Below are positions 6,343-34,553 of a stretch of 64,000 nucleotides of DNA, piece after piece. Source of the stretch: Escherichia coli. Its GTDB lineage: Bacteria; Pseudomonadota; Gammaproteobacteria; Enterobacterales; Enterobacteriaceae. The notes below the pieces were generated by a model that made no database searches, had not been told where the DNA came from, and saw nothing but the letters and a program-made list of their open reading frames with translations. The DNA is taken from NCBI RefSeq assembly GCF_003334765.1, contig NZ_QOWT01000002.1; one strand, 5' to 3'. The position numbers and the translations under genes were made by a program. How positions within the stretch are numbered: position 1 is the first letter of the stretch; the number at the start of each line of letters is the position of its first letter.

Positions 6343-7812
6343 TTATTTCTTATCGTTCTGCGGGAACTTCATTTCGCTGTAGCGTACGAAGTGAGTTCCT
6401 TTAATCAGCTTGTAGCCGAACCAAATAATCAGGAACAGCGGGATACCAATATACGTTGCCGCTACGCCGCCCCAGTCAATAGTATCTTTCAGGAACGCTT
6501 CGTAGTTCTGGCCCAAAGTGATAATCAGACACAGAATGAATGCGAAGATCGGCCCCAGTGGGAAGAAACCTGAACGGTACGGCAGATCGTTAATGTCGTG
6601 TCCCTGCAATACGTAACCGCGACGGAAGCGATAGTGGCTAATGGCAATCCCCAGCCAGGCGATAAAACCCGTCATCCCGGAGGTGTTCAGCAGCCACAGG
6701 TATACCGTCTGGTTGCCAAACATGGAGGTCAGGAAGCACAGACCGGCAATCACCGTCGTCGCATACAGCGCATTACGCGGCACGCCACCACGCGACAGTT
6801 TAGCGAAAATGCGCGGCGCTTTACCGTCACACGCCAGGGTGTACAGCATACGAGTAGACGCATACATACCGGAGTTACCCGCTGACAGCACCGCCGTCAG
6901 AATAACTGCGTTCATCACCGCCGCCGCAGAGAGCAGACCCGCGTGCTGGAACACCAGGGTGAACGGACTAACGCTGATGTCTTTAACATCGTTACGCAGC
7001 AGGCTCGGATCGGTGTACGGAATAATCAGGCTGATAATCAGGATCGCGAACACATAGAACAACAGGATTCGCCAGAACACCTGACGTACCGCGCGTGGAA
7101 TGTTTTTCGCCGGATCTTCGGACTCGCCTGCAGCAATACCGATCAGCTCGGTTCCCTGGAAAGAGAAGCCGACAATCATAGCTACGCCGATCATCGCCGC
7201 AAAACCACCAGCAAACGGCGCTTCGCCGATTGTCCAGTTGCTCCAGCCCGCAGGCTGCGCGCCTTTGAAGATACCGATAATCATCAGCACGCCAACGATG
7301 ATAAAGACAATAACTGTCGTGACTTTGATCAGTGAGAACCAGTATTCCGCTTCACCAAAGCCACGAACTGAGATGTAGTTCAGCAGGAAGATAACGCCGA
7401 GGAACAACGCACTCCAGATCCAGCCCGGTGTATCCGGGAACCACCAGCTCATGACCAGCTGAGCTGCAACCAGGTCAACGGCGATAGTCACCGCCCAGTT
7501 GTACCAGTAGTTCCAGCCCAGCGCGAAGCCAAAGCCTTCTTCAACATAGTTCTGACCGTAAGTGGCAAACGAACCGGAAACCGGCATATATGCAGCCAGT
7601 TCACCGAGACTGGTCATCAGGAAGTAAACCATCAGGCCAATCAGCATATACGAGAGCAATGCCCCGCCCGGACCTGCCTGAGAAATCGTTGCGCCAGAGG
7701 CAACAAAAAGACCTGTACCGATGGAACCGCCAATGGCAATCATCGTCAGGTGACGCGCCTTTAATTCACGGCGTAAGCCCGGCGCTTCTGTGGTTTTAGT
7801 TTCGGAAACCAT
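6343..7812 (-). CDS. lysP: Lysine-specific permease (APC family), 489 aa
   Basis: ORF track 489 aa, recognised LysP sequence. Confidence 0.95.
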   Translation of the reverse strand: MVSETKTTEAPGLRRELKARHLTMIAIGGSIGTGLFVASGATISQAGPGGALLSYMLIGLMVYFLMTSLGELAAYMPVSGSFATYGQNYVEEGFGFALGWNYWYNWAVTIAVDLVAAQLVMSWWFPDTPGWIWSALFLGVIFLLNYISVRGFGEAEYWFSLIKVTTVIVFIIVGVLMIIGIFKGAQPAGWSNWTIGEAPFAGGFAAMIGVAMIVGFSFQGTELIGIAAGESEDPAKNIPRAVRQVFWRILLFYVFAILIISLIIPYTDPSLLRNDVKDISVSPFTLVFQHAGLLSAAAVMNAVILTAVLSAGNSGMYASTRMLYTLACDGKAPRIFAKLSRGGVPRNALYATTVIAGLCFLTSMFGNQTVYLWLLNTSGMTGFIAWLGIAISHYRFRRGYVLQGHDINDLPYRSGFFPLGPIFAFILCLIITLGQNYEAFLKDTIDWGGVAATYIGIPLFLIIWFGYKLIKGTHFVRYSEMKFPQNDKK

Positions 7813-10119: not shown

Positions 10120-10977
10120 ATGAAATACATTGGAGCGCACGTTAGTGCTGCTGGCGGTCTGGCAAATGCCGCAATTCGCGCCGCCGAAATCGACGCAACC
10201 GCGTTTGCCTTGTTCACCAAAAACCAACGTCAGTGGCGTGCCGCACCGCTCACGACGCAAACCATCGATGAATTCAAAGCCGCCTGTGAAAAATATCACT
10301 ACACATCGGCGCAAATTCTTCCCCACGACAGTTATCTGATTAACCTCGGACATCCGGTCACTGAAGCTCTGGAAAAATCGCGCGATGCCTTTATAGATGA
10401 AATGCAGCGTTGCGAACAGCTGGGGCTTTCTTTGCTCAACTTCCACCCTGGCAGCCATCTGATGCAGATTTCAGAAGAGGATTGCCTTGCGCGTATTGCC
10501 GAATCCATCAACATTGCGCTGGATAAAACTCAAGGTGTGACAGCGGTGATAGAAAACACCGCCGGTCAGGGCAGTAACTTAGGGTTTAAATTCGAACATC
10601 TCGCGGCGATTATCGACGGCGTGGAAGATAAATCCCGCGTCGGCGTCTGCATTGATACCTGCCATGCTTTCGCTGCCGGGTATGATTTGCGTACTCCAGC
10701 CGAATGCGAGAAAACATTCGCGGATTTTGCCCGTACTGTCGGCTTTAAGTATCTGCGCGGGATGCACCTTAACGATGCGAAAAGCACCTTTGGCAGCCGC
10801 GTTGACCGCCATCATAGCCTCGGTGAAGGCAATATCGGTCATGATGCGTTCCGCTGGATCATGCAGGACGACCGTTTCGACGGCATTCCGCTGATCCTCG
10901 AAACCATCAACCCGGATATCTGGGCAGAAGAGATCGCCTGGCTGAAAGCGCAACAAACTGAAAAAGCGGTAGCCTGA
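10120..10977 (+). CDS. nfo: Endonuclease IV (AP endonuclease), 285 aa
   Basis: ORF track 285 aa, recognised Nfo sequence. Confidence 0.95.
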
Positions 10978-10979
10978 AG

Positions 10980-12068
10980 ATGAATAACCGGGAAAAGGAG
11001 ATCCTTGCAATTTTACGGCGTAACCCGCTGATTCAGCAGAACGAAATTGCGGACATGCTGCAAATCAGCCGTTCGCGCGTTGCGGCGCATATTATGGATT
11101 TAATGCGCAAAGGCCGGATTAAAGGCAAAGGTTACATTCTCACCGAGCAGGAATACTGCGTAGTGGTGGGGACAATCAATATGGATATTCGCGGGATGGC
11201 GGATATCCGTTACCCGCAATCGGCTTCTCATCCCGGTACAATTCATTGCTCAGCGGGCGGCGTGGGACGCAACATCGCCCACAATCTGGCGCTGTTAGGC
11301 CGTGACGTCCATTTGCTTTCAGTGATTGGCGATGACTTTTATGGCGAAATGCTCCTGGAAGAAACGCGCCGTGCCGGCGTGAATGTCTCCGGCTGCGTTC
11401 GTTTGCATGGTCAAAGCACATCGACGTATCTGGCAATTGCCAATCGAGACGATCAAACCGTGCTGGCGATTAACGATACCCATCTGCTGGAACAGTTGAC
11501 ACCGCAACTACTGAACGGGTCGCGCGATTTACTTCGTCATGCGGGCGTGGTACTGGCTGATTGCAACCTGACAGCCGAGGCGCTGGAATGGGTCTTTACC
11601 CTCGCTGATGAAATCCCGGTGTTTGTCGATACCGTTTCAGAATTCAAAGCGGGCAAAATCAAACACTGGCTGGTGCATATTCACACCCTGAAACCCACTT
11701 TACCGGAGCTGGAAATTTTATGGGGACAGGCGATCACCAGCGATGCTGACCGTAATACCGCAGTGAATGCATTGCATCAGCAAGGTGTTCAGCAACTGTT
11801 TGTTTATTTGCCCGATGAGTCAGTTTATTGCAGCGAAAAGGATGGAGAACAATTTTTGCTGACCGCGCCAGCGCATACGACAGTAGACAGTTTTGGTGCT
11901 GACGATGGTTTTATGGCGGGCCTGGTATATAGCTTTCTTGAAGGATACAGTTTCCGCGACAGCGCCCGTTTTGCGGTAGCCTGCGCGGCAATTTCGCGCG
12001 CCAGCGGCAGCTTAAACAACCCTACCCTGTCTGCCGATAACGCGCTTTCATTAGTGCCAATGGTGTAA
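10980..12068 (+). CDS. yeiI: YeiI, N-terminal HTH domain fused to a PfkB/ribokinase-family sugar kinase, 362 aa; substrate unknown
   Basis: ORF track 362 aa; kinase part aligns by eye with PsuK (GGVGRNIA.NLALLG, HTLKP); 2-nt gap after the nfo stop suggests co-transcription. Confidence 0.9.
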   Translation: MNNREKEILAILRRNPLIQQNEIADMLQISRSRVAAHIMDLMRKGRIKGKGYILTEQEYCVVVGTINMDIRGMADIRYPQSASHPGTIHCSAGGVGRNIAHNLALLGRDVHLLSVIGDDFYGEMLLEETRRAGVNVSGCVRLHGQSTSTYLAIANRDDQTVLAINDTHLLEQLTPQLLNGSRDLLRHAGVVLADCNLTAEALEWVFTLADEIPVFVDTVSEFKAGKIKHWLVHIHTLKPTLPELEILWGQAITSDADRNTAVNALHQQGVQQLFVYLPDESVYCSEKDGEQFLLTAPAHTTVDSFGADDGFMAGLVYSFLEGYSFRDSARFAVACAAISRASGSLNNPTLSADNALSLVPMV

Positions 12069-12174: not shown

Positions 12175-13425
12175 TCAAGCTAAACCAATAAAGAACCCGG
12201 CAATGGTCGCACTCATCAAGTTGGAAAGCGTCGCCGCCGCCAGCGCCCGTAAACCAAGCTGGGCGATTTCCGGCGCACGGTGTGGCGCAACCGCAGAAAA
12301 CGCCCCCACCACCACCCCGATAGAACCAAAGTTAGCGAAACCGCACAACGCGAAGGAAATAATCGCCACAGTTTTAGCATCGAGAGTGCCAGCCGTTTGC
12401 AGATAGGGTGAGAAATTGAGATAAGCGACAAATTCATTTATTGCCAGTTTCTGTCCAATCAAACTCCCGGCAAGATTCGCATCACTCCAGTCCACACCCA
12501 TCACCCACGCCAGTGGAGCCAGCAGGTAACCTAAAATGGACTCCAGCGAGGCATGTTCAAAACCAAACCAGCCACCAACGCCGCCGATAATACCGTTAAT
12601 CAACGCAATTATTGCAACAAATGCCATCACCACTGTTGCCACACCTGCGGCGATTTTCAGCCCGGTCATTGCCCCTGTCGCAGCGGCTTCAATAATGCTT
12701 TTTGGCGGTGTTTCGGTGAAAGAGAGGTTATTAAAGGAAACCTGCGAAGATTCCGTTGCCGGGCTTAACAGGCGGGCAAACAAGATCCCGCCAGGGATCG
12801 CCATTAATGATGCCGCCAGCAGATATTCCACAGGCACGCCCAGTGCGGCGTAACCAATCATTGTCGAACCAGCAATCGAGGCCATGCCACTACAAATCGC
12901 TGTAAATAATTCATTGCGATTCAGACGATCGATAAAGGGTTTGACGATTGCCGGAATTTCGTTTTGCCCGAGGAAAATGGTGGTGACCGCGACGAATGAC
13001 TCGATCTTGCTGATATTTAATGCTTTCTGGAAGATACCGCCGAGAATTCGAATTAAAATCCCCATCACACCGATGTAGTAGAGAATACTCACCAGCGCGG
13101 TGACGAAGATAATTGCCGGTAACACCCTGAAACCAAAGATAAATCCTGCACCATCAAATAAGGTATCCATTTTCGGTCCGACCAGAGAACCGAAGATAAA
13201 TGCGCTACCCGCGTCGCTGTACGCCATCACTTTATGCACGCCAAAAGCGACTTTTTCAGCGACCCAACGCCCTGGCGGTAACCAAAGCATAATGCCGCCA
13301 ATCACGACCTGTAACACTAACGCCGCGCCAACGGTACGCAGGCTGATCTTCTTCTTGTTTACTGACAGTAAAAACGCAATCGTCAGCAATACCACCATTC
13401 CCAGAACACTTCTCATGACATCCAT
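12175..13425 (-). CDS. nupX: Concentrative nucleoside transporter (CNT family) NupX/YeiJ, 416 aa
   Basis: ORF track 416 aa; highly similar to the psuT product in this window. Confidence 0.92.
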   Translation of the reverse strand: MDVMRSVLGMVVLLTIAFLLSVNKKKISLRTVGAALVLQVVIGGIMLWLPPGRWVAEKVAFGVHKVMAYSDAGSAFIFGSLVGPKMDTLFDGAGFIFGFRVLPAIIFVTALVSILYYIGVMGILIRILGGIFQKALNISKIESFVAVTTIFLGQNEIPAIVKPFIDRLNRNELFTAICSGMASIAGSTMIGYAALGVPVEYLLAASLMAIPGGILFARLLSPATESSQVSFNNLSFTETPPKSIIEAAATGAMTGLKIAAGVATVVMAFVAIIALINGIIGGVGGWFGFEHASLESILGYLLAPLAWVMGVDWSDANLAGSLIGQKLAINEFVAYLNFSPYLQTAGTLDAKTVAIISFALCGFANFGSIGVVVGAFSAVAPHRAPEIAQLGLRALAAATLSNLMSATIAGFFIGLA

Positions 13426-13524
13426 AGTGATTATCTCTTCATGTCATATTGGGCGACGGCTTTCTGCCCATCAGAAATAGCCAGGCCTGCATCTTGCGAT
13501 ACCGGCCCGGCTTGTTATCAACAC

Positions 13525-14466
13525 TTAATGGGTTTTGATGTAGCCGCGCACGCACTCTTCGACTAATCCCCAGAACCAGTCTGTATCAATAGTGATGCCG
13601 ACTTTGGTATTGGCGGGCTTGCCAAGAACGCCCAGCTCGTCGCAGACGGTACGCCCATAGCAAGGGCCACTGTTGACGTCCACTTCGACGTACATCTCCT
13701 GGGTTTTAATGCCATCAGGGTTAATCAGATAACCGATGCAGGTGGCGTCGTGCACCGGGCCGCCAGCAAGGCCGTAGTTTTCGAACTGCGTTTTGAGAGT
13801 GAAGTTCATGATGTCGCTGAACAGCTCTCCGGCGGGGCCGCCTGCCCTTTCCATCCGAGCAATCACGTCCGGGGTGCAAACGGTCTGGTTGGTGAGATCG
13901 AGGCCCATCATCACTAATGGAACGCCGGAGGTGAACACTACGCGTGCGGCTTCCGGGTCGGCAAAGATGTTGAACTCGGCAGATGGCGTGAAGTTGCCTG
14001 TACCGTAAGCGCCGCCCATTAGCACAATTTCACGGATTTTGGGCAGGATCGCGGGTTGCATACGCATTGCCACCGCGATATTTGAAAGCGGACCAACCGG
14101 CACCAGAGTGATATCGCCATCGCTTGCCATCAGGGTATCAATGATATATTTCACCGCATGAGTGCTTTCTGCCTGGCGGGTCAGCGGCTCGAATACCGGG
14201 CCATCCAGTCCGGTTTCACCGTGAATATTATCGGCAACGATTTGTTGACGCATAATGGGCTGCGGCATCCCCGCATAAACCGGAACATTAATCTCCAGTT
14301 TCTGGCAAACATTCAGGCCATTAATTAATGTTTTATCAAGCGTCTGATTACCCGCTACAATAGTGATGCCTAATAAATCTATTGCCGGATGTTTCGCCGC
14401 CATCATTATAGCAATAGCATCATCATGACCCGGATCACAATCCAGAATAATTTTTCTCTTTTCCAT
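13525..14466 (-). CDS. rihB: Pyrimidine-specific ribonucleoside hydrolase RihB (IU-NH family), 313 aa
   Basis: ORF track 313 aa; N-terminal [12 protein letters not shown] nucleoside hydrolase motif. Confidence 0.94.
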
Positions 14467-14634
14467 TGTTTATTTCCTCTGTTTCCAGTTGCGTTATTTT
14501 TCCTACAGCAAAGAAAATTCGACCGGGCCGATGATTGAATCTTAACAACAGCGTACGTATGCTAAATATGAGAAATCTCATAGCGGATAAACATCGTGAA
14601 AGAAATCCACAATAATGATCTTAAGCAGCAATTG

Positions 14635-15294
14635 ATGAGTGAATCCGCGTTTAAGGATTGCTTTTTAACGGATGTTTCAGCCGATACGCGGCTGTTTCAT
14701 TTTTTAGCGCGTGACTACATTGTGCAGGAAGGGCAACAGCCGTCCTGGCTGTTTTACCTGACGCGAGGCCGCGCCAGGCTTTACGCCACGCTAGCTAATG
14801 GTCGCGTGTCGCTGATCGATTTCTTTGCCGCCCCCTGTTTTATTGGCGAGATTGAGTTAATCGATAAAGACCATGAACCGCGTGCGGTGCAGGCTATTGA
14901 AGAGTGTTGGTGCCTTGCGCTCCCTATGAAACATTACCGTCCGCTGTTATTAAACGACACGCTATTTTTACGAAAACTCTGCGTCACCTTAAGTCATAAA
15001 AATTATCGTAATATTGTTTCTTTAACTCAGAATCAATCATTTCCGTTAGTGAATCGCCTGGCAGCATTTATATTACTCTCGCAGGAAGGTGATCTTTATC
15101 ACGAAAAGCATACGCAAGCGGCAGAGTATTTAGGCGTTTCTTATCGACATCTTTTATATGTTCTCGCGCAGTTCATTCACGACGGTTTATTAATTAAAAG
15201 CAAGAAAGGGTATCTCATTAAAAACAGAAAGCAGTTGTCAGGACTGGCGCTGGAGATGGACCCGGAGAATAAATTCTCCGGGATGATGCAGTAA
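14635..15294 (+). CDS. yeiL: CRP/FNR-family transcriptional regulator YeiL (conventional start [10 protein letters not shown]...); track ORF begins 13 codons upstream at 14596
   Basis: ORF track 232 aa; cNMP-binding-like fold plus C-terminal HTH; start choice between 14596 and 14635 is uncertain. Confidence 0.85.
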
Positions 15295-15364: not shown

Positions 15365-16615
15365 TTACGCCAGACCAATAAAGAACCCGGCAATAGTCGC
15401 ACTCATCAGGTTGGAAAGCGTTGCTGCTGCCAGCGCCCGTAAACCAAGCTGGGCGATTTCCGGCGCGCGTTTTGGCGAAATAGCCGAAAATGCGCCAACG
15501 ACAACACCGATAGAACCAAAGTTAGCAAAACCACAAAGCGCAAAGGAGATAATCGCAATGGTTTTCACTTCCAGCGTGCCGCCCGTTTGCAGGTATGGGG
15601 AGAAACTCAGGTAAGCGACGAATTCGTTAATCGCCAGTTTCTGCCCAATCAGGCTACCCGCAAGATTGGCATCACTCCAGTCCACACCCATGATCCACGC
15701 CAGCGGTGCCAGCACATAGCCAAAAATACTTTCCAGAGAGGCATTGGCGAAACCAAACCAGCCGCCAATTCCGCCGATAATGCCGTTGATCAGCGCAATA
15801 ATTGCGACAAACGCCATTACCACCGTCGCCACACCAGCGGCGATTTTTAGCCCGGTCATCGCACCGCTCGCCGCCGCTTCGATAAAGCTTTTTGGCGGCG
15901 TTTCGCTGAACGACAGATTTTCAAATGTGACCTGCGAAGGCTCGGTTGCCGGGCTAAGAATACGTGCAAACAAAATCCCGCCAGGGATCGCCATCAGCGA
16001 TGCCGCTAACAGGTAGTCAATTGGTACGCCCATTCCGGCATAACCAATCATCATCGAACCAGCAATGGACGCCATCCCGCTACAAATTGCGGTAAACAAC
16101 TCGTTGCGATTCATGCGATCGATAAACGGTTTAACGATCGCCGGGATCTCATTTTGCCCGAGGAAAATAGTAGTAACCGCAACAAAAGATTCGATTTTGC
16201 TGATGTTGAGGGCTTTCTGGAAAATGCTGCCAAGGATGCGAATCAGCAGCCCCATCACGCCAATGTAGTACAGCAGACTGATGAGCGCAGTAACGAAAAT
16301 AATCGCCGGAAGTACGCGAAAGGCGAAGATAAAACCCGCACCGTCAAACAGGACATCCATTTTCGGCCCAACCAGCGAACCAAAAATGAAGGCGCTACCG
16401 GCATCACTGTAAGACATCACTTTATGAACGCCTAATGCCGCCTGTTCTACTGCCCATTTTCCCGGTGGGAAGTAGAGCATGATGCCACCAATAGCGATTT
16501 GCAGCAGCAGTGCGGCTCCAACCGTGCGCAAACTGATGCTCTTTTTATTCACTGACAACAGAAATGCTATTGCCAGTAACACCACCATCCCCACAACACT
16601 TCTCATTATATCCAT
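15365..16615 (-). CDS. psuT: Putative pseudouridine transporter (CNT family) PsuT/YeiM, 416 aa
   Basis: ORF track 416 aa; paralog of nupX; last gene of the psuK-psuG-psuT unit. Confidence 0.92.
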   Translation of the reverse strand: MDIMRSVVGMVVLLAIAFLLSVNKKSISLRTVGAALLLQIAIGGIMLYFPPGKWAVEQAALGVHKVMSYSDAGSAFIFGSLVGPKMDVLFDGAGFIFAFRVLPAIIFVTALISLLYYIGVMGLLIRILGSIFQKALNISKIESFVAVTTIFLGQNEIPAIVKPFIDRMNRNELFTAICSGMASIAGSMMIGYAGMGVPIDYLLAASLMAIPGGILFARILSPATEPSQVTFENLSFSETPPKSFIEAAASGAMTGLKIAAGVATVVMAFVAIIALINGIIGGIGGWFGFANASLESIFGYVLAPLAWIMGVDWSDANLAGSLIGQKLAINEFVAYLSFSPYLQTGGTLEVKTIAIISFALCGFANFGSIGVVVGAFSAISPKRAPEIAQLGLRALAAATLSNLMSATIAGFFIGLA

Positions 16616-16708
16616 AATGATTTTCCCTTCATGCCGGTAAATCCGGCGTCAGCGCCAGGTTTTGGTATGCTTGATGAGTACGGGCGACGGCTTTCTGCCC
16701 GTCAGAAA

Positions 16709-17647
16709 TTAACCCGCGAGACGCTGATATTCTTTGGCAATTTCGCTCGCCAGAATGGCGTTGTTGAACACCAGCTGGATGTTGGATTTCAGGCTGTCAC
16801 CGCCGGTCAGTTCAGCAACGCGCGCCAGCAGGAATGGCGTACTTTCTTTACCAATGACTCCCTGAGCTTCAGCTTCAGCTACCGCCTGATCGATCGCCGC
16901 ATTGATAGTGTGTTCCGGCATAGCAAACTGTTCCGGGATCGGGTTCGCTACCACGAGGCCACCGTTCAGACCGCTTTGCCATTTCACCGCCATTGCACGG
17001 GCAATTTCGCTGGCGCTGTCGAGACGAATGCTGACGTCAAACGGGCTGGTGCGGCAGAAAAACGCAGGCAGCGCTTTAGTCTGATAGCCAATTAACGGCA
17101 CACCGAAGGTTTCTAAATACTCAGTGGTTAATCCTAAATCGAGAATAGATTTCGCCCCGGCACAAACAACGGTGACATTAGTATTTGCCAGTTCTTGCAA
17201 ATCGGCAGAAATATCGAAGGTATGTTCCGCCCCGCGATGCACACCACCAATTCCCCCGGTGGCAAATACTTTAATTCCGGCAAGCGCCGCAATAATCATC
17301 GTTGAAGCCACAGTGGTTGCGCCATTTTTTCCGGCGGCAACAACAAAAGGTAAATCGCGACGACTAACTTTGGTCACGTTATGCCCTTCACGACCCAGTA
17401 ATTCAATTTCTTCTTTGCTTAACCCCACTTTCATCACGCCGCCAATAATGGCGATCGTGGCAGGTACAGCGCCCTGTTTACGAATAGTTTCTTCAACTTC
17501 AATTGCGGTCTGGGCATTTTGTGGGAACGGCATCCCGTGAGAAATAATGGTCGATTCCAGCGCCACAACCGGTTTTTTGTTTTTTAAAGCGTCCTGCACT
17601 TCCGGGGAAATTTGTAATAATTCAGGGGAAATTTTTAATTCAGACAT
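16709..17647 (-). CDS. psuG: Pseudouridine-5'-phosphate glycosidase PsuG/YeiN, 312 aa
   Basis: ORF track 312 aa; recognised YeiN/indigoidine-synthase-A-like sequence. Confidence 0.93.
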   Translation of the reverse strand: MSELKISPELLQISPEVQDALKNKKPVVALESTIISHGMPFPQNAQTAIEVEETIRKQGAVPATIAIIGGVMKVGLSKEEIELLGREGHNVTKVSRRDLPFVVAAGKNGATTVASTMIIAALAGIKVFATGGIGGVHRGAEHTFDISADLQELANTNVTVVCAGAKSILDLGLTTEYLETFGVPLIGYQTKALPAFFCRTSPFDVSIRLDSASEIARAMAVKWQSGLNGGLVVANPIPEQFAMPEHTINAAIDQAVAEAEAQGVIGKESTPFLLARVAELTGGDSLKSNIQLVFNNAILASEIAKEYQRLAG

Positions 17648-18576
17648 TCTGCGTTCTCCACTAACGATATAACGTTGGCAATCGATAAATCGGGGTTATT
17701 GGTGTATTCACAGGAGAGCGCCATTGACGAACATCCCTGTGCGAAACGAACAGATTCGGCAAACGGCATTCCGTCTACCCAACACGAAGCAAGTCCCGCC
17801 ATCATGGCATCGCCCGCTCCGGTAACATTAATAACATTGGTTTTGATCGGCGCAGACCAGCCACTTTCACCGCTGATATCGCTGTAATAAACGCCGTCGC
17901 CGCCCATGCTCAATACCAGTCGGTTCAGGCCATGTTGATGGAACCAGGCAGCAACTTTTGCCACATCTTCACGCCCTGACAGCGCAATCCCACTCAGGGT
18001 TTCCGCTTCAAGGCGGTTTGGCTTGAGAGTGTGGATCTGATTTAGACGGTCGCGCACTTTGACACATTTCCATGCCGAAACCGGATCGACAAATACGGGT
18101 ACGTTGGCGGCATTATCCAGAATCCATGCCAGTGCCTCTTCACTGATATTACAGTCCGCGACAATGACCTTTGCCCTCTGAATAAATTCACCGTGCTGTG
18201 CGAGATATTCAGCTGTAATAGCGTTGCTAATATTCATGTCATTTATAGCAACCAGCATTTCACCGGTATTATCGAGTAATGATAAATAACTCGACGTATT
18301 TTCTCCCGGCACAATCAGGCATTTATCGACATAAACGCCAGATTGATTGGTTTGCGTTAGCAGCGATTGACCATAAAAATCACTGCCTACGGCGCTCAGT
18401 AGCCAGGCTTTGTTACCCAGCAACGCCAGGTTTTGTGCAATATTGCGCCCTACTCCACCAGGCGTAAATTTTATTTTACCTGGATTTGAATCCGCATAAT
18501 TTAATGATTCATGTGAATATCCGGCGACATCAATATTCGCCGAACCTATAATTACGACATAATCCTTTTCGCGCAT
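17635..18576 (-). CDS. psuK: Pseudouridine kinase PsuK/YeiC (PfkB family), 313 aa; overlaps the psuG start by 13 nt
   Basis: ORF track 313 aa; GGVGRNIAQNLALLG and TGAGDAMMAG ribokinase motifs. Confidence 0.93.
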   Translation of the reverse strand: MREKDYVVIIGSANIDVAGYSHESLNYADSNPGKIKFTPGGVGRNIAQNLALLGNKAWLLSAVGSDFYGQSLLTQTNQSGVYVDKCLIVPGENTSSYLSLLDNTGEMLVAINDMNISNAITAEYLAQHGEFIQRAKVIVADCNISEEALAWILDNAANVPVFVDPVSAWKCVKVRDRLNQIHTLKPNRLEAETLSGIALSGREDVAKVAAWFHQHGLNRLVLSMGGDGVYYSDISGESGWSAPIKTNVINVTGAGDAMMAGLASCWVDGMPFAESVRFAQGCSSMALSCEYTNNPDLSIANVISLVENAECLN

Positions 18577-18643
18577 AGCACGTCCTCTGGTAAAAAATTA
18601 CCAACCCTGTCAATCCACAAGAATATAGATACTGCAAAGACGG

Positions 18644-18679
18644 TTTAAACATGTGTTCATATTTAAACATGTGCTCATA
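18644..18679. promoter_or_regulatory. Tandem direct repeat of an 18-bp unit (TTTAAACATGTG[T/C]TCATA x2), 68-103 bp upstream of the psuK start codon; candidate operator
   Basis: Two adjacent 18-mers differing at one position, seen directly in the sequence. Confidence 0.4.
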
Positions 18680-18823
18680 GTATGCATGTTTTACGTAAAG
18701 TAAATTACCGCCAGAGAGGCAAAATGGGCAGATTTGAGCAGGCTCACAAAATGCGATTAAATGCCTGAATTACAAAAGCGAGGAATTTGTGACGGGATGC
18801 ACAGAACAGAACAATAAAAAAGG

Positions 18824-18852
18824 GCAGAAAATAATCTGCCCTTGAGGAAATA
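18824..18852 (-). terminator. Rho-independent terminator for the fruBKA operon (hairpin GGGCAGA..TCTGCCC with U-run on the minus strand)
   Basis: aaaaaagggcagaaaataatctgccc on the plus strand is a hairpin followed by a T-run on the minus strand, about 150 bp downstream of the fruA stop. Confidence 0.7.
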
Positions 18853-18998
18853 ACCTGAGTGTTTGATGAACGTTTGAAGTTTCTACTGAAAGATAAAACC
18901 ATTTAAATTCATAAAATTACATTCACAAACCGGTCATTCTCTTTGCGCTCATCAAATGTTACAGGACAGGAAATTTCTGCCCTGTAACACACCTTTTA

Positions 18999-20690
18999 TT
19001 ACGCTGCTTTCGCTACTGCGTCCACTTCCGGACGTTTCAGGAAGGCATAGGCCAAACCCGCCACCAGCGTACCGGCAATAATTGCTACCAGGTAACCCAA
19101 TACCGGCGTAATAGCGCCAGGGATCAGCAGAACAAACAGACCACCGTGCGGTGCCATCAGTTTCGCACCAATCGCCATTGAGATTGCGCCAGTCAGCGCC
19201 CCACCCACGATACAGCACGGCAGCACACGCATCGGATCACGAGCAGCAAACGGAATTGCACCTTCCGAAATGAAGCACAGTCCCAATACCAGAGCGGCTT
19301 TGCCACCTTCCTGCTGCGCTTTGTCGAATTTGCGACGCGCCACCATTGTTGCCAGACCCATTGCCAGCGGTGGCACCATACCTGCCGCCATAATCGCCGC
19401 CATCGGGCCATAGGTTTGAGTACTCAGCAGACCCACACCGAATGCGTACGCTGCTTTGTTTACCGGACCGCCCATGTCAGTACACATCATGCCACCGAGG
19501 ATCGCCCCCAGCAGAACCGCATTCGCAGTCCCCATGGTCTGCAGCCAGTGAGTCAGCCCTTCGAGAATGCCAGCAACTGGTTTACCGATCAGGTAGATCA
19601 TCGCCAGACCGACCACCAGACTGGAAATTAGCGGAATGATCAGGATCGGTTTCAGCGCCTCCATACTCTGTGGCAGTTTCAATTGCGTACTGATTAACTT
19701 CGCAATGTAACCAGCCAGGAAGCCCGCAATAATACCACCAATGAAGCCAGAACCGGTGCTGACCGCCAGCATACCGCCAATCAGACCCGGAGTGAGGCCC
19801 GGACGATCGGCAATGGAAAAGGCAATATAACCTGCCAGTACCGGCACCATCAGCGCAAAGGCTGAACCACCACCAATCTGCATCAGCGCCGCAGCCAACG
19901 TACCCGGCTCTTTAAACGCTTCGATACCAAAAGCAAAAGAAAGCGCGATACACAGACCACCTGCAACGACCATCGGCAGCATGTAAGAAACGCCCGTCAG
20001 CAAGTGACGGTATGCGCCTGCACTCTCTTTCTTACTTTCAGTGGTCGCCGTTTGAGCTTTGCCCGCCGGTTCATACGGCGTTGCTTCAGCAACCGCTTTA
20101 TCCAGTTCCTGCGCGGTTTTCTTCAGCGCCAGACCGGTAGAGGTACGATACATCGGTTTACCAGCAAATTTCGCCAGATCCACTTCGATATCTGCCGCCA
20201 CAATCACCAGATCCGCTGCTGCGACTTCTTCGGGAGTGATTGCATTACCCGCGCCAACAGAACCACGGGTTTCAACTTTCACCCACCAGCCACGTTTTTT
20301 CGCTTCGGTTTCAATGGCTTCAGCCGCCATAAAGGTGTGTGCTACGCCAGTCGGGCAAGCAGTCACCGCAACTACGCGTTTCGGACCGCTGGCGGCAACT
20401 GGTGCTGTCGCAGCGACCGGCGCAGTGTAAGGTTTCGCATGGCCTTTGGCTTCACTCAGGAACAGCTCAGGGTGCGCAACTGCCCGGGAAATATCGCCCA
20501 GCCAGACATTTTTACCGTTCAGCGCGCTGTCGTTCGGGATGGAATCACCGAGAACAATCGCCATTTCAGCGTCGTTCGGATTGTCGATGATTTCCAGTTT
20601 TGCTTTTCGCGCCGCCGCGCCCAGCAGGGTCTTCGCCATATAGGCGCGTGCCTGACCGAGATTAGCGTCAATAATCAGCAGCGTTTTCAT
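18999..20690 (-). CDS. fruA: PTS fructose-specific EIIB'BC component, 563 aa
   Basis: ORF track 563 aa; recognised FruA sequence. Confidence 0.95.
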   Translation of the reverse strand: MKTLLIIDANLGQARAYMAKTLLGAAARKAKLEIIDNPNDAEMAIVLGDSIPNDSALNGKNVWLGDISRAVAHPELFLSEAKGHAKPYTAPVAATAPVAASGPKRVVAVTACPTGVAHTFMAAEAIETEAKKRGWWVKVETRGSVGAGNAITPEEVAAADLVIVAADIEVDLAKFAGKPMYRTSTGLALKKTAQELDKAVAEATPYEPAGKAQTATTESKKESAGAYRHLLTGVSYMLPMVVAGGLCIALSFAFGIEAFKEPGTLAAALMQIGGGSAFALMVPVLAGYIAFSIADRPGLTPGLIGGMLAVSTGSGFIGGIIAGFLAGYIAKLISTQLKLPQSMEALKPILIIPLISSLVVGLAMIYLIGKPVAGILEGLTHWLQTMGTANAVLLGAILGGMMCTDMGGPVNKAAYAFGVGLLSTQTYGPMAAIMAAGMVPPLAMGLATMVARRKFDKAQQEGGKAALVLGLCFISEGAIPFAARDPMRVLPCCIVGGALTGAISMAIGAKLMAPHGGLFVLLIPGAITPVLGYLVAIIAGTLVAGLAYAFLKRPEVDAVAKAA

Positions 20691-33458: not shown

Positions 33459-34553
33459 ATGGGCGCTTACCTGATTCGCCGTCTGTTGCTGGTGATCCCA
33501 ACATTATGGGCGATTATCACCATCAACTTTTTCATCGTGCAAATTGCGCCTGGCGGTCCGGTCGACCAGGCCATCGCCGCCATTGAGTTTGGTAATGCCG
33601 GAGTATTACCCGGCGCAGGCGGTGAAGGTGTTCGTGCCAGCCATGCGCAAACGGGTGTCGGCAATATCAGCGACAGTAATTACCGTGGCGGACGCGGATT
33701 AGATCCAGAAGTGATCGCTGAGATCACTCATCGCTACGGTTTTGATAAGCCGATCCACGAACGTTACTTCAAAATGCTCTGGGACTACATCCGCTTTGAT
33801 TTTGGCGATAGCCTGTTTCGCAGCGCCTCGGTGCTGACGCTGATTAAAGACAGTCTGCCGGTTTCCATCACCCTCGGATTGTGGAGCACGCTGATTATCT
33901 ATCTGGTGTCGATTCCGTTAGGCATTCGCAAAGCTGTTTATAATGGGAGCCGCTTTGACGTCTGGAGTAGCGCATTTATCATCATCGGCTACGCCATTCC
34001 GGCCTTTTTGTTTGCCATCCTGCTGATTGTCTTCTTCGCGGGCGGCAGCTATTTCGACCTGTTCCCTCTACGCGGCCTGGTTTCCGCTAACTTTGATTCG
34101 CTGCCGTGGTATCAGAAAATCACCGATTATCTGTGGCATATCACGCTGCCGGTGCTGGCGACAGTGATTGGTGGCTTTGCGGCGCTGACCATGCTGACAA
34201 AAAACTCATTCCTTGATGAAGTGCGCAAGCAATACGTGGTGACCGCGCGTGCGAAAGGGGTAAGTGAAAAAAATATTCTCTGGAAACATGTGTTCCGCAA
34301 CGCCATGCTGCTGGTGATTGCCGGTTTTCCGGCGACGTTTATCAGCATGTTTTTTACCGGCTCGCTGCTGATTGAGGTGATGTTTTCACTCAATGGTCTG
34401 GGCTTACTGGGCTACGAAGCGACCGTCTCGCGCGATTATCCTGTAATGTTTGGTACCTTGTATATTTTCACCCTGATTGGCCTGCTGCTGAATATTGTCA
34501 GTGATATCAGCTATACGCTGGTTGATCCGCGTATTGATTTTGAGGGACGTTAA
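33459..34553 (+). CDS. yejB: ABC transporter permease YejB, 364 aa
   Basis: ORF track 364 aa; immediately follows yejA. Confidence 0.92.

Follow-up and report, generated by a model that had tools for sequence, protein, structure and literature searches.

A 64,000-nucleotide stretch of Escherichia coli DNA (contig NZ_QOWT01000002.1, assembly GCF_003334765.1; here called the window and numbered from its first letter) carries the pseudouridine operon psuKGT, whose first gene, psuK, is preceded by an 18-bp tandem direct repeat. We analysed this repeat, the promoter around it and the genes nearby. The repeat resolves into two side-by-side palindromes, O1 and O2. On balance we read them as operators at the psuKGT core promoter, with YeiI, the product of the orphan gene yeiI, as their most likely repressor.

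A tandem repeat that resolves into two palindromes

The repeat is read directly from the letters. On the plus strand, positions 18644–18679 consist of TTTAAACATGTGTTCATA followed without a gap by TTTAAACATGTGCTCATA, and the sole difference between the two 18-mers is a T at 18656 against a C at 18674. The psuK-sense (minus) strand of the same 36 bp reads TATGAGCACATGTTTAAA and then TATGAACACATGTTTAAA. Tandem Repeats Finder delimits the same interval with a period of 18, 2.0 copies, 94% matches and a score of 65. Given where the minus-strand psuK reading frame begins (Table 1), the repeat lies 68–103 bp upstream of the ATG, so an initial annotation of the window had its length, its single mismatch and its distance from the gene right. 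A search for further 18-mers, which that annotation had proposed, found just these two copies in the 64-kb window at up to three mismatches, and two 18-mer matches arose in 0 of 100 dinucleotide-preserving shuffles. The 64-kb sequence matches that of E. coli K-12 (a window position equals the NC_000913.3 position minus 2,240,720). Six diverse E. coli promoters keep both the repeat and its mismatch identical, in intergenic regions that differ by up to ~4%.

Comparison across genera showed that the palindromes, rather than the direct repeat, are what is kept. We aligned psuK upstream regions from 11 loci found by a PsuK genome scan (Escherichia spp., E. albertii, five Citrobacter, two Buttiauxella and a Raoultella metagenome-assembled genome). 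With Salmonella, the comparison spans five genera. Conserved blocks stand out at a CRP-like site, TTTAC(T), TACTAT, two GAACA-YR-TGTTY cores and the Shine-Dalgarno sequence, and the spacers between them vary. Invariant columns, counted in seven non-redundant promoters, make up 0.64 of the CRP-like site, 0.83 of the −35 block, 0.67 of the −10 block, 0.57 each of O1 and O2 and 0.73 of the Shine-Dalgarno sequence, against just 0.16–0.25 of the spacers. The direct repeat as a whole unit is not conserved in Citrobacter, Buttiauxella, Raoultella, E. albertii or a second E. coli allele, which share the dyad core alone (one such pair reads TATGAACATGTGTTTGAT and GATGAACATGTGCTCTAA). Since only this palindromic core extends beyond the K-12-type Escherichia allele, the element is better described as two abutting dyad sites than as a direct repeat. 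Conservation in orthologous psuK promoters, which the initial annotation had named as a check, therefore holds for the palindrome pair and its 18-bp spacing and fails for the repeat, which is confined to the K-12-type allele.

Both dyads are built alike. Thirteen distinct sites yield the symmetrised consensus TTGAACAYRTGTTCAA, with invariant A-C-A and T-G-T cores. All four half-sites of O1 and O2 are conserved, and the central step is pyrimidine-purine without exception. The centres of O1 and O2 are invariably 18 bp apart in the 12 Enterobacteriaceae loci, wherever both sites score at least 17 with a position weight matrix (PWM) built from the enterobacterial sites.

The motif is specific to this operon within the DNA scanned. 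Besides O1 and O2, nothing in the 64-kb window scores above 9.5 with the PWM, and across ~160 kb of related loci scores of at least 17 occur solely upstream of psuK. It is thus a local, single-operon motif in these sequences. A 12-mer look-alike at 34284 was set aside, as it falls within coding sequence and the full PWM gives it a low score. Compared by eye, the consensus sequences of LexA, Cra/LacI-type, ARG and Pho boxes and of CpxR repeats do not fit the sites.

The palindromes would cover the psuK transcription start

O1 and O2 would occupy the position expected of repressor sites. The conserved TTTACT and TACTAT blocks lie 16 bp apart and therefore predict a start near the A at 18670 (NC_000913.3 2,259,390). 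Relative to this predicted start, O1 would span about −8 to +8, on the start itself and overlapping the end of the −10 element, and O2 would cover about +11 to +26. Sites that lie over the predicted start and the first ~26 transcribed bases are in a repressor position. The initial annotation had called the tandem repeats typical operator architecture in the psuK promoter region. Conserved dyads bear out an operator-like promoter element; direct-repeat units and a location upstream of the promoter do not survive, since the sites overlap the predicted −10 element and start.

Upstream of this core promoter lies the conserved CRP-like site, which would be centred at about −70.5 from the predicted start, a class I position. 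Its core, TGTGA-GCCTGC-TCAAA (18748–18733), fits at 9 of 10 positions, and the form conserved among species is TTGTGA-N6-TCA(A/T)AT. The main-text table of a CRP Footprint-seq paper has no entry near psuK. CRP, which the initial annotation had listed as a possible binder of the repeat, does not suit the repeat itself: TGTGA-N6-TCACA is not fitted, with one TGTGT half-site only in either register, and CRP has this separate conserved site upstream.

We rejected a second candidate promoter, TTTAAA-16-TATATT (18649–18622), as the main one. This pick of a consensus scan is unconserved outside Escherichia, and the adaptive mutation described below does not fall inside it.

Table 1. Genes and regulatory features around psuK, in window coordinates (PWM, position weight matrix)
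Feature	Position	Strand	Remarks
yeiI	10980–12068	+	362 aa; winged helix and PfkB; proposed cognate repressor gene
yeiL	14596–15294	+	CRP/FNR-family regulator; in nupX-rihB-yeiL cassette between yeiI and psuT
psuT	15365–16615	−	operon gene; psuKGT spans 15365–18576
psuG	16709–17647	−	operon gene
psuK	17635–18576	−	first operon gene
O2 (predicted operator)	18645–18660	−	16-bp imperfect palindrome ATGAACACATGTTTAA; PWM score 22.7; centre 18 bp downstream of O1
O1 (predicted operator)	18663–18678	−	16-bp imperfect palindrome ATGAGCACATGTTTAA; PWM score 20.8; core kept in 11 species
−10 TACTAT (putative)	18677–18682	−	conserved alignment block; 16 bp from −35
−35 TTTACT (putative)	18699–18704	−	TTTAC invariant in 11 species
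CRP-like site TTTTGTGAGCCTGCTCAAATCT	18730–18751	−	14 of 22 columns invariant in 7 non-redundant promoters
fruA intrinsic terminator	18820–18843	−	hairpin and T-run; fruA ends at 18999; splits fruBKA transcription from the psuK promoter

A recurrent adaptive mutation maps to the putative −35 element

Experimental evolution repeatedly changes one base of this promoter. Mouse-gut colonisation yielded an A-to-C change at NC_000913.2 position 2257444 (PMC7518454, PMC10340439), cultures held in stationary phase for 1,200 days yielded 'psuKp' A-to-C, 'intergenic (-126/+297)' (PMC7858067), and evolved formaldehyde-assimilation strains carry A-to-C at NC_000913.3 position 2,259,422, again −126/+297 (PMC10733421). 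The offset from NC_000913.2 to NC_000913.3 is +1978 here, and it reproduces 4 of 4 srlR amino-acid changes of the same paper. With the offset thus verified, every report of the psuK/fruA A-to-C change corresponds to window position 18702.

The change falls within the predicted −35 element. On the sense strand it is T to G and turns TTTACT into TTGACT, near consensus. Recurrence of the same gain-of-function base, as opposed to scattered changes, fits an up-mutation in the −35 element of a weak, activator-dependent promoter, and its position supports the promoter assignment. This reading of the A-to-C change is stated in none of the mutation papers (PMC7518454, PMC10340439, PMC7858067, PMC10733421). 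Laboratory stocks also differ from one another at 18702, by the same A-to-C change.

YeiI is the candidate repressor

YeiI joins a DNA-binding domain to a relative of the operon's own kinase. It has an HTH_24 winged helix at aa 1–48 (E 2.3e-10) and a PfkB kinase domain at aa 58–348 (E 2.5e-67), and it is the closest paralogue of PsuK. Its nearest solved relative is the E. coli pseudouridine kinase 7vkp (E 1.8e-66), and no solved chain extends over the helix-turn-helix of YeiI. Its function was still called uncharacterised in 2022 and 2025 (PMC9061257, PMC12506659). Proteins with the same pairing of winged helix-turn-helix and PfkB domains (wHTH-PfkB) are widespread among its homologues.

Genes of this type keep company with the psu genes. 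In E. albertii, Citrobacter, Buttiauxella, Raoultella and Salmonella, a yeiI-type gene lies convergent with psuT and is followed by nfo. In Yersinia, Pasteurella, Shewanella, Aliivibrio, Xenorhabdus and a Burkholderiaceae metagenome-assembled genome, wHTH-PfkB is the first gene of the psuG operon; a nucleoside transporter usually comes next, and there is no separate psuK. Altogether a wHTH-PfkB gene stands beside or within a psu operon in 11 genera or groups.

The operator motif follows these genes into distant taxa. We applied the PWM, trained on enterobacterial sites only, to the six distant loci of 13–15 kb in which wHTH-PfkB leads the operon. In 4 of the 6, the best match of the whole locus lies at most 120 bp upstream of the wHTH-PfkB start, with empirical p values of 1e-4 each for Yersinia, Pasteurella and Aliivibrio and 0.009 for Shewanella (site GCAAACATATGTTTGC). 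Over the six loci, Fisher's combined p for sites upstream of wHTH-PfkB genes is ~4e-11. The four taxa with such a best match also have a weaker second site, at a distance of 18 bp in Yersinia and Pasteurella and of 19 bp in Shewanella and Aliivibrio.

The protein sequences are consistent with a conserved DNA-binding activity and a changed catalytic one. A recognition-helix segment, ISRSxVAxHIMxL, is kept in wHTH-PfkB proteins from E. coli to Shewanella, and within Enterobacteriaceae YeiI aa 8–57 are almost invariant, compared with 79–86% identity over the whole protein. The catalytic GAGD of PsuK and of the operon-encoded fusions reads GADD in YeiI of E. coli, Salmonella and Citrobacter, whose substrate loop DSNPG is also altered, to ASHPG, SSSPG or ASNPG (motif regions aa ~303–316 and ~81–86). 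Replacement of GAGD by GADD fits a sensor that has lost catalysis, and YeiI of these three genera may be catalytically impaired in this way. The distribution of the two forms suggests that an ancestral bifunctional kinase and autorepressor was duplicated in the Escherichia-Salmonella-Citrobacter group, giving rise to the enzyme PsuK and the putative sensor-regulator YeiI. We put at roughly even chances the broader proposal that wHTH-PfkB proteins form a family of pseudouridine-sensing, kinase-fold transcription factors, acting as kinase and autorepressor in most gamma-proteobacteria and split into PsuK and YeiI in Escherichia, Salmonella and Citrobacter.

Two of the distant loci hold an additional lone palindrome of the same type, 250–290 bp upstream of wHTH-PfkB: CCAAACACTTGTTTGG in Yersinia (L019, ~6745–6766) and ACAAACAGATGTTGGT in Xenorhabdus (L025, 5711–5733). 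These may mark a distal operator or a second promoter.

Several observations weigh against YeiI. Its gene lies three genes from the psu operon in E. coli and is apparently co-transcribed with nfo. The 18-bp distance between operator centres would place two dimers on different faces of the helix. Of the distant loci, the Burkholderiaceae one has just a weak site (p = 0.058), and Xenorhabdus lacks a clear pair near the gene start. Within E. coli, yeiI is present in 5,423 of 5,426 complete genomes, in two classes (3,361 at 95% identity or more; 2,060 at 80–90%) whose distribution does not strictly follow the promoter allele. Finally, among the evolution experiments in which the −35 mutation recurs, the tables that could be read contain no yeiI loss-of-function mutations. 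That yeiI is never mutated there is surprising, because the gene of a simple repressor is a large mutational target; its absence could be explained if inducer was already present and promoter strength was limiting.

A model for psuKGT control

In the model that we propose, dimeric YeiI would occupy O1 and O2 when pseudouridine is lacking and keep RNA polymerase from binding or from escaping. The putative inducer, pseudouridine or its 5'-phosphate, would bind the PfkB-fold domain and shift its conformation, so that the protein lets go of the DNA. Cyclic AMP (cAMP)-CRP at about −70 would then recruit RNA polymerase to the weak TTTACT promoter. The T-to-G change to TTGACT would strengthen that promoter, and selection would favour it wherever RNA turnover supplies pseudouridine that cells can use for pyrimidine or carbon.

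The model supplies a testable regulatory map of psuKGT, consisting of a CRP-like site, a weak −35 element, two predicted operators on the start and YeiI as candidate repressor. It gives the orphan gene yeiI a possible role, explains the recurrent −126 A-to-C mutation as a −35 up-mutation, and pinpoints the bases and the gene to manipulate in work on pseudouridine bioproduction and gut adaptation. If it is true, YeiI would be E. coli's first dedicated regulator of modified-nucleoside salvage. The initial annotation knew of no dedicated pseudouridine regulator in E. coli, and the literature that could be searched, which excluded subscription journals, EcoCyc, RegulonDB and RegPrecise, agrees: it gives no account of this operator, of psuKGT control or of such a regulator.

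Alternative binders and functions

Another regulator could bind O1 and O2, and we regard this as unlikely, though a genuine contender. Candidates are RutR, a TetR-family protein that responds to uracil, and some unnamed factor, whether local or global. Operator anatomy and conservation alone point to no particular protein, and the evolution-study tables, free of yeiI mutations, sit as well with a different repressor. RutR has a metabolic argument, since pseudouridine breakdown yields uracil, its ligand, and the RutR box is associated with the catabolism of pyrimidines and uracil. It also has a likeness of sequence: the RutR consensus, which we take to be TTGACCAnnTGGTCAA, is presumably the closest E. 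coli motif, with the same 7-2-7 dyad geometry and a difference of one base per half-site from the psuK-site consensus. That base tells against it. Half-site position 5 is A or G, never the C of the RutR box, in 13 of 13 distinct enterobacterial sites. The motif moreover tracks wHTH-PfkB genes into Pasteurella, Shewanella and Aliivibrio, where the sites, such as the Shewanella one given above, move further from the RutR box, and the searched literature links RutR with psuK in nothing beyond one shared table.

A role at the level of the mRNA seems to us quite improbable. The inner half-sites, O1-right and O2-left, could pair as a 5'-terminal hairpin that acts on stability, translation or pairing with a small RNA such as RprA. 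The predicted 5' untranslated region (UTR; ~18577–18670, minus strand) does fold with this hairpin (z = −2.85), RNAalifold retains it in nine species, and contacts between RprA and psuK mRNA are reported from both RIL-seq and TRIC-seq (bioRxiv 10.1101/2025.09.11.675593). Two adjacent palindromes, however, confer hairpin potential automatically, and covariation at the central positions is expected anyway from the constraint to a pyrimidine-purine step. The outer half-sites, O1-left upstream of the predicted start and O2-right, are equally conserved, which a hairpin leaves unexplained. A search of Rfam gave no match for the 5' UTR element, just a chance match (E 0.51) to an unrelated long non-coding RNA model.

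YeiL, the CRP/FNR-family protein whose gene adjoins psuT in E. coli, is a very improbable binder. The geometry of O1 and O2, TGAAC-N4-GTTCA in a 5-N4-5 arrangement like an FNR or PrfA box, would by inspection suit a dimer of this family, and YeiL homologues are present in several Enterobacterales. The operator pair is nonetheless kept in E. albertii, Citrobacter, Buttiauxella, Raoultella and Salmonella, where the psu genes have no yeiL beside them. Of 11 motif-bearing loci, 8 lack an adjacent yeiL, and the gene adjoins psuT only in loci of the E. coli clade. The yeiL genes of Buttiauxella, Hafnia and Enterococcus each diverge from a gene for a rihB-type nucleoside hydrolase and have no psu genes nearby, and no PWM score of 11 or more occurs in rihB-yeiL spacers, including that of the window. 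Of the binders that the initial annotation had left open, YeiL is thus disfavoured by neighbourhood and motif and CRP by its own upstream site, which leaves another protein, with YeiI as the candidate.

That the repeat is a functionless duplication left by neutral slippage is scarcely credible: the near-perfect repeat is confined to the K-12-type Escherichia allele and its copy number varies naturally (one copy in 3 genomes, three in 6), but the same cores with 18-bp spacing recur in genera with diverged flanks, and exactly two copies are kept in ~4,210 of 4,222 E. coli genomes with that allele.

Comparison with known regulators

YeiI, if it is the repressor, would resemble the ROK family in logic. 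NagC, Mlc and Bacillus subtilis XylR likewise set an N-terminal winged helix on a sugar-kinase-fold sensor of the pathway substrate, have kinase paralogues and act at palindromic operators in catabolic promoters, often together with CRP. The sensor fold of YeiI, unlike theirs, is PfkB/ribokinase and not ROK/ASKHA. ROK repressors also use distant looping sites, whereas psuK has two abutting 16-bp dyads 18 bp apart, where YeiI binding is predicted.

The operon-encoded fusions call to mind BirA, NadR and PutA. In Yersinia, Pasteurella, Shewanella and Aliivibrio, wHTH-PfkB is the sole kinase of the psu operon, retains GAGD and has the motif before its own gene, a combination that would make it an autoregulating enzyme. 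E. coli, Salmonella and Citrobacter differ in dividing these roles between PsuK, with GAGD and no helix-turn-helix, and YeiI, with the helix-turn-helix and GADD.

Control of nucleoside operons by DeoR and by CytR with CRP offers a parallel in promoter layout, with a local repressor and cAMP-CRP acting on one operon through palindromic operators that overlap the promoter. The motifs are different: DeoR binds TGTTAGAA.TTCTAACA and CytR binds TGCAA repeats, and the psuK-type motif occurs nowhere else in the 64-kb window. Tandem ARG boxes also place two 18-bp units side by side at a promoter. They are spaced 21 bp apart and read TGAAT-N4-ATTCA, while at psuK the flanks of the direct repeat are unconserved between genera and only the internal dyads are kept.

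Variation among E. coli genomes

The K-12-type psuK gene and promoter occur in ~4,220 of 5,426 complete E. coli genomes and are missing from ~1,200. The one genome without them that we examined, strain S5, has a divergent, E. albertii-like psuK and promoter (L027 15405–15859, compared with window 18577–18998), in which O1 and O2 read TATGAACATGTGTTTAAA and TCTGAACACATGCTCTAA and form no exact repeat. This divergent promoter allele and the loosely linked yeiI classes, of which the lower has about 81% identity, suggest recombination or introgression at the locus.

Within the K-12-type allele, copy number varies rarely and two copies dominate; the near-perfect repeat is therefore best seen as a lineage-specific homogenisation that is able to slip, with two sites as what is maintained. 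Exact one-copy promoters are found in three related cheese isolates (UC4224, UC4315 and UC4316) and exact three-copy promoters in six genomes (210205630, GB089, 09-00049, O22:H8 154, 158274-3 and OkiPb01715). These promoters are otherwise identical and so provide ready-made operator-dosage variants.

Neighbouring genes and minor observations

The nupX-rihB-yeiL segment (window 12175–15294) behaves as a self-contained, portable cassette, inserted between yeiI and psuT in E. coli. The yeiL-rihB pair of Buttiauxella, Hafnia and Enterococcus usually comes with a nucleoside transporter, and YeiL is 57–58% identical. As this pairing occurs without psu genes, rihB and nupX are likely targets of YeiL.

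On the far side of the cassette, yeiI starts 3 nt past the nfo stop codon (window 10977–10980), a gap so short that co-transcription is probable. SoxRS regulates nfo. In the window, no psu-type operator lies upstream of nfo, so E. coli YeiI would not be autoregulated, unlike the operon-encoded fusions elsewhere.

A short terminator-like hairpin (18708–18722, minus strand; TTGCCTCTCTGGCGG, then TAATTTACTT) lies directly upstream of the −35 element and overlaps it. It may be a chance structure or a second barrier to read-through from fruA.

In several clinical isolates under ciprofloxacin, PsuG and PsuK rank among the proteins whose expression is most reduced in recA mutants (PMC11039860). No LexA box is evident in the psuK promoter, and pseudouridine freed by RNA turnover or lysis may account for the effect indirectly.

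The locus is damaged in a few strains. An IS1 element interrupts psuK in BL12 (NZ_CP079780.1), and psuK is annotated as a truncated pseudogene in 02E060 (NZ_AP027197.1). In the laboratory strain ER1709 (NZ_CP030240.1), the match upstream of psuK is limited to the first 60 bp and lies within a region labelled fruB, which looks like a deletion.

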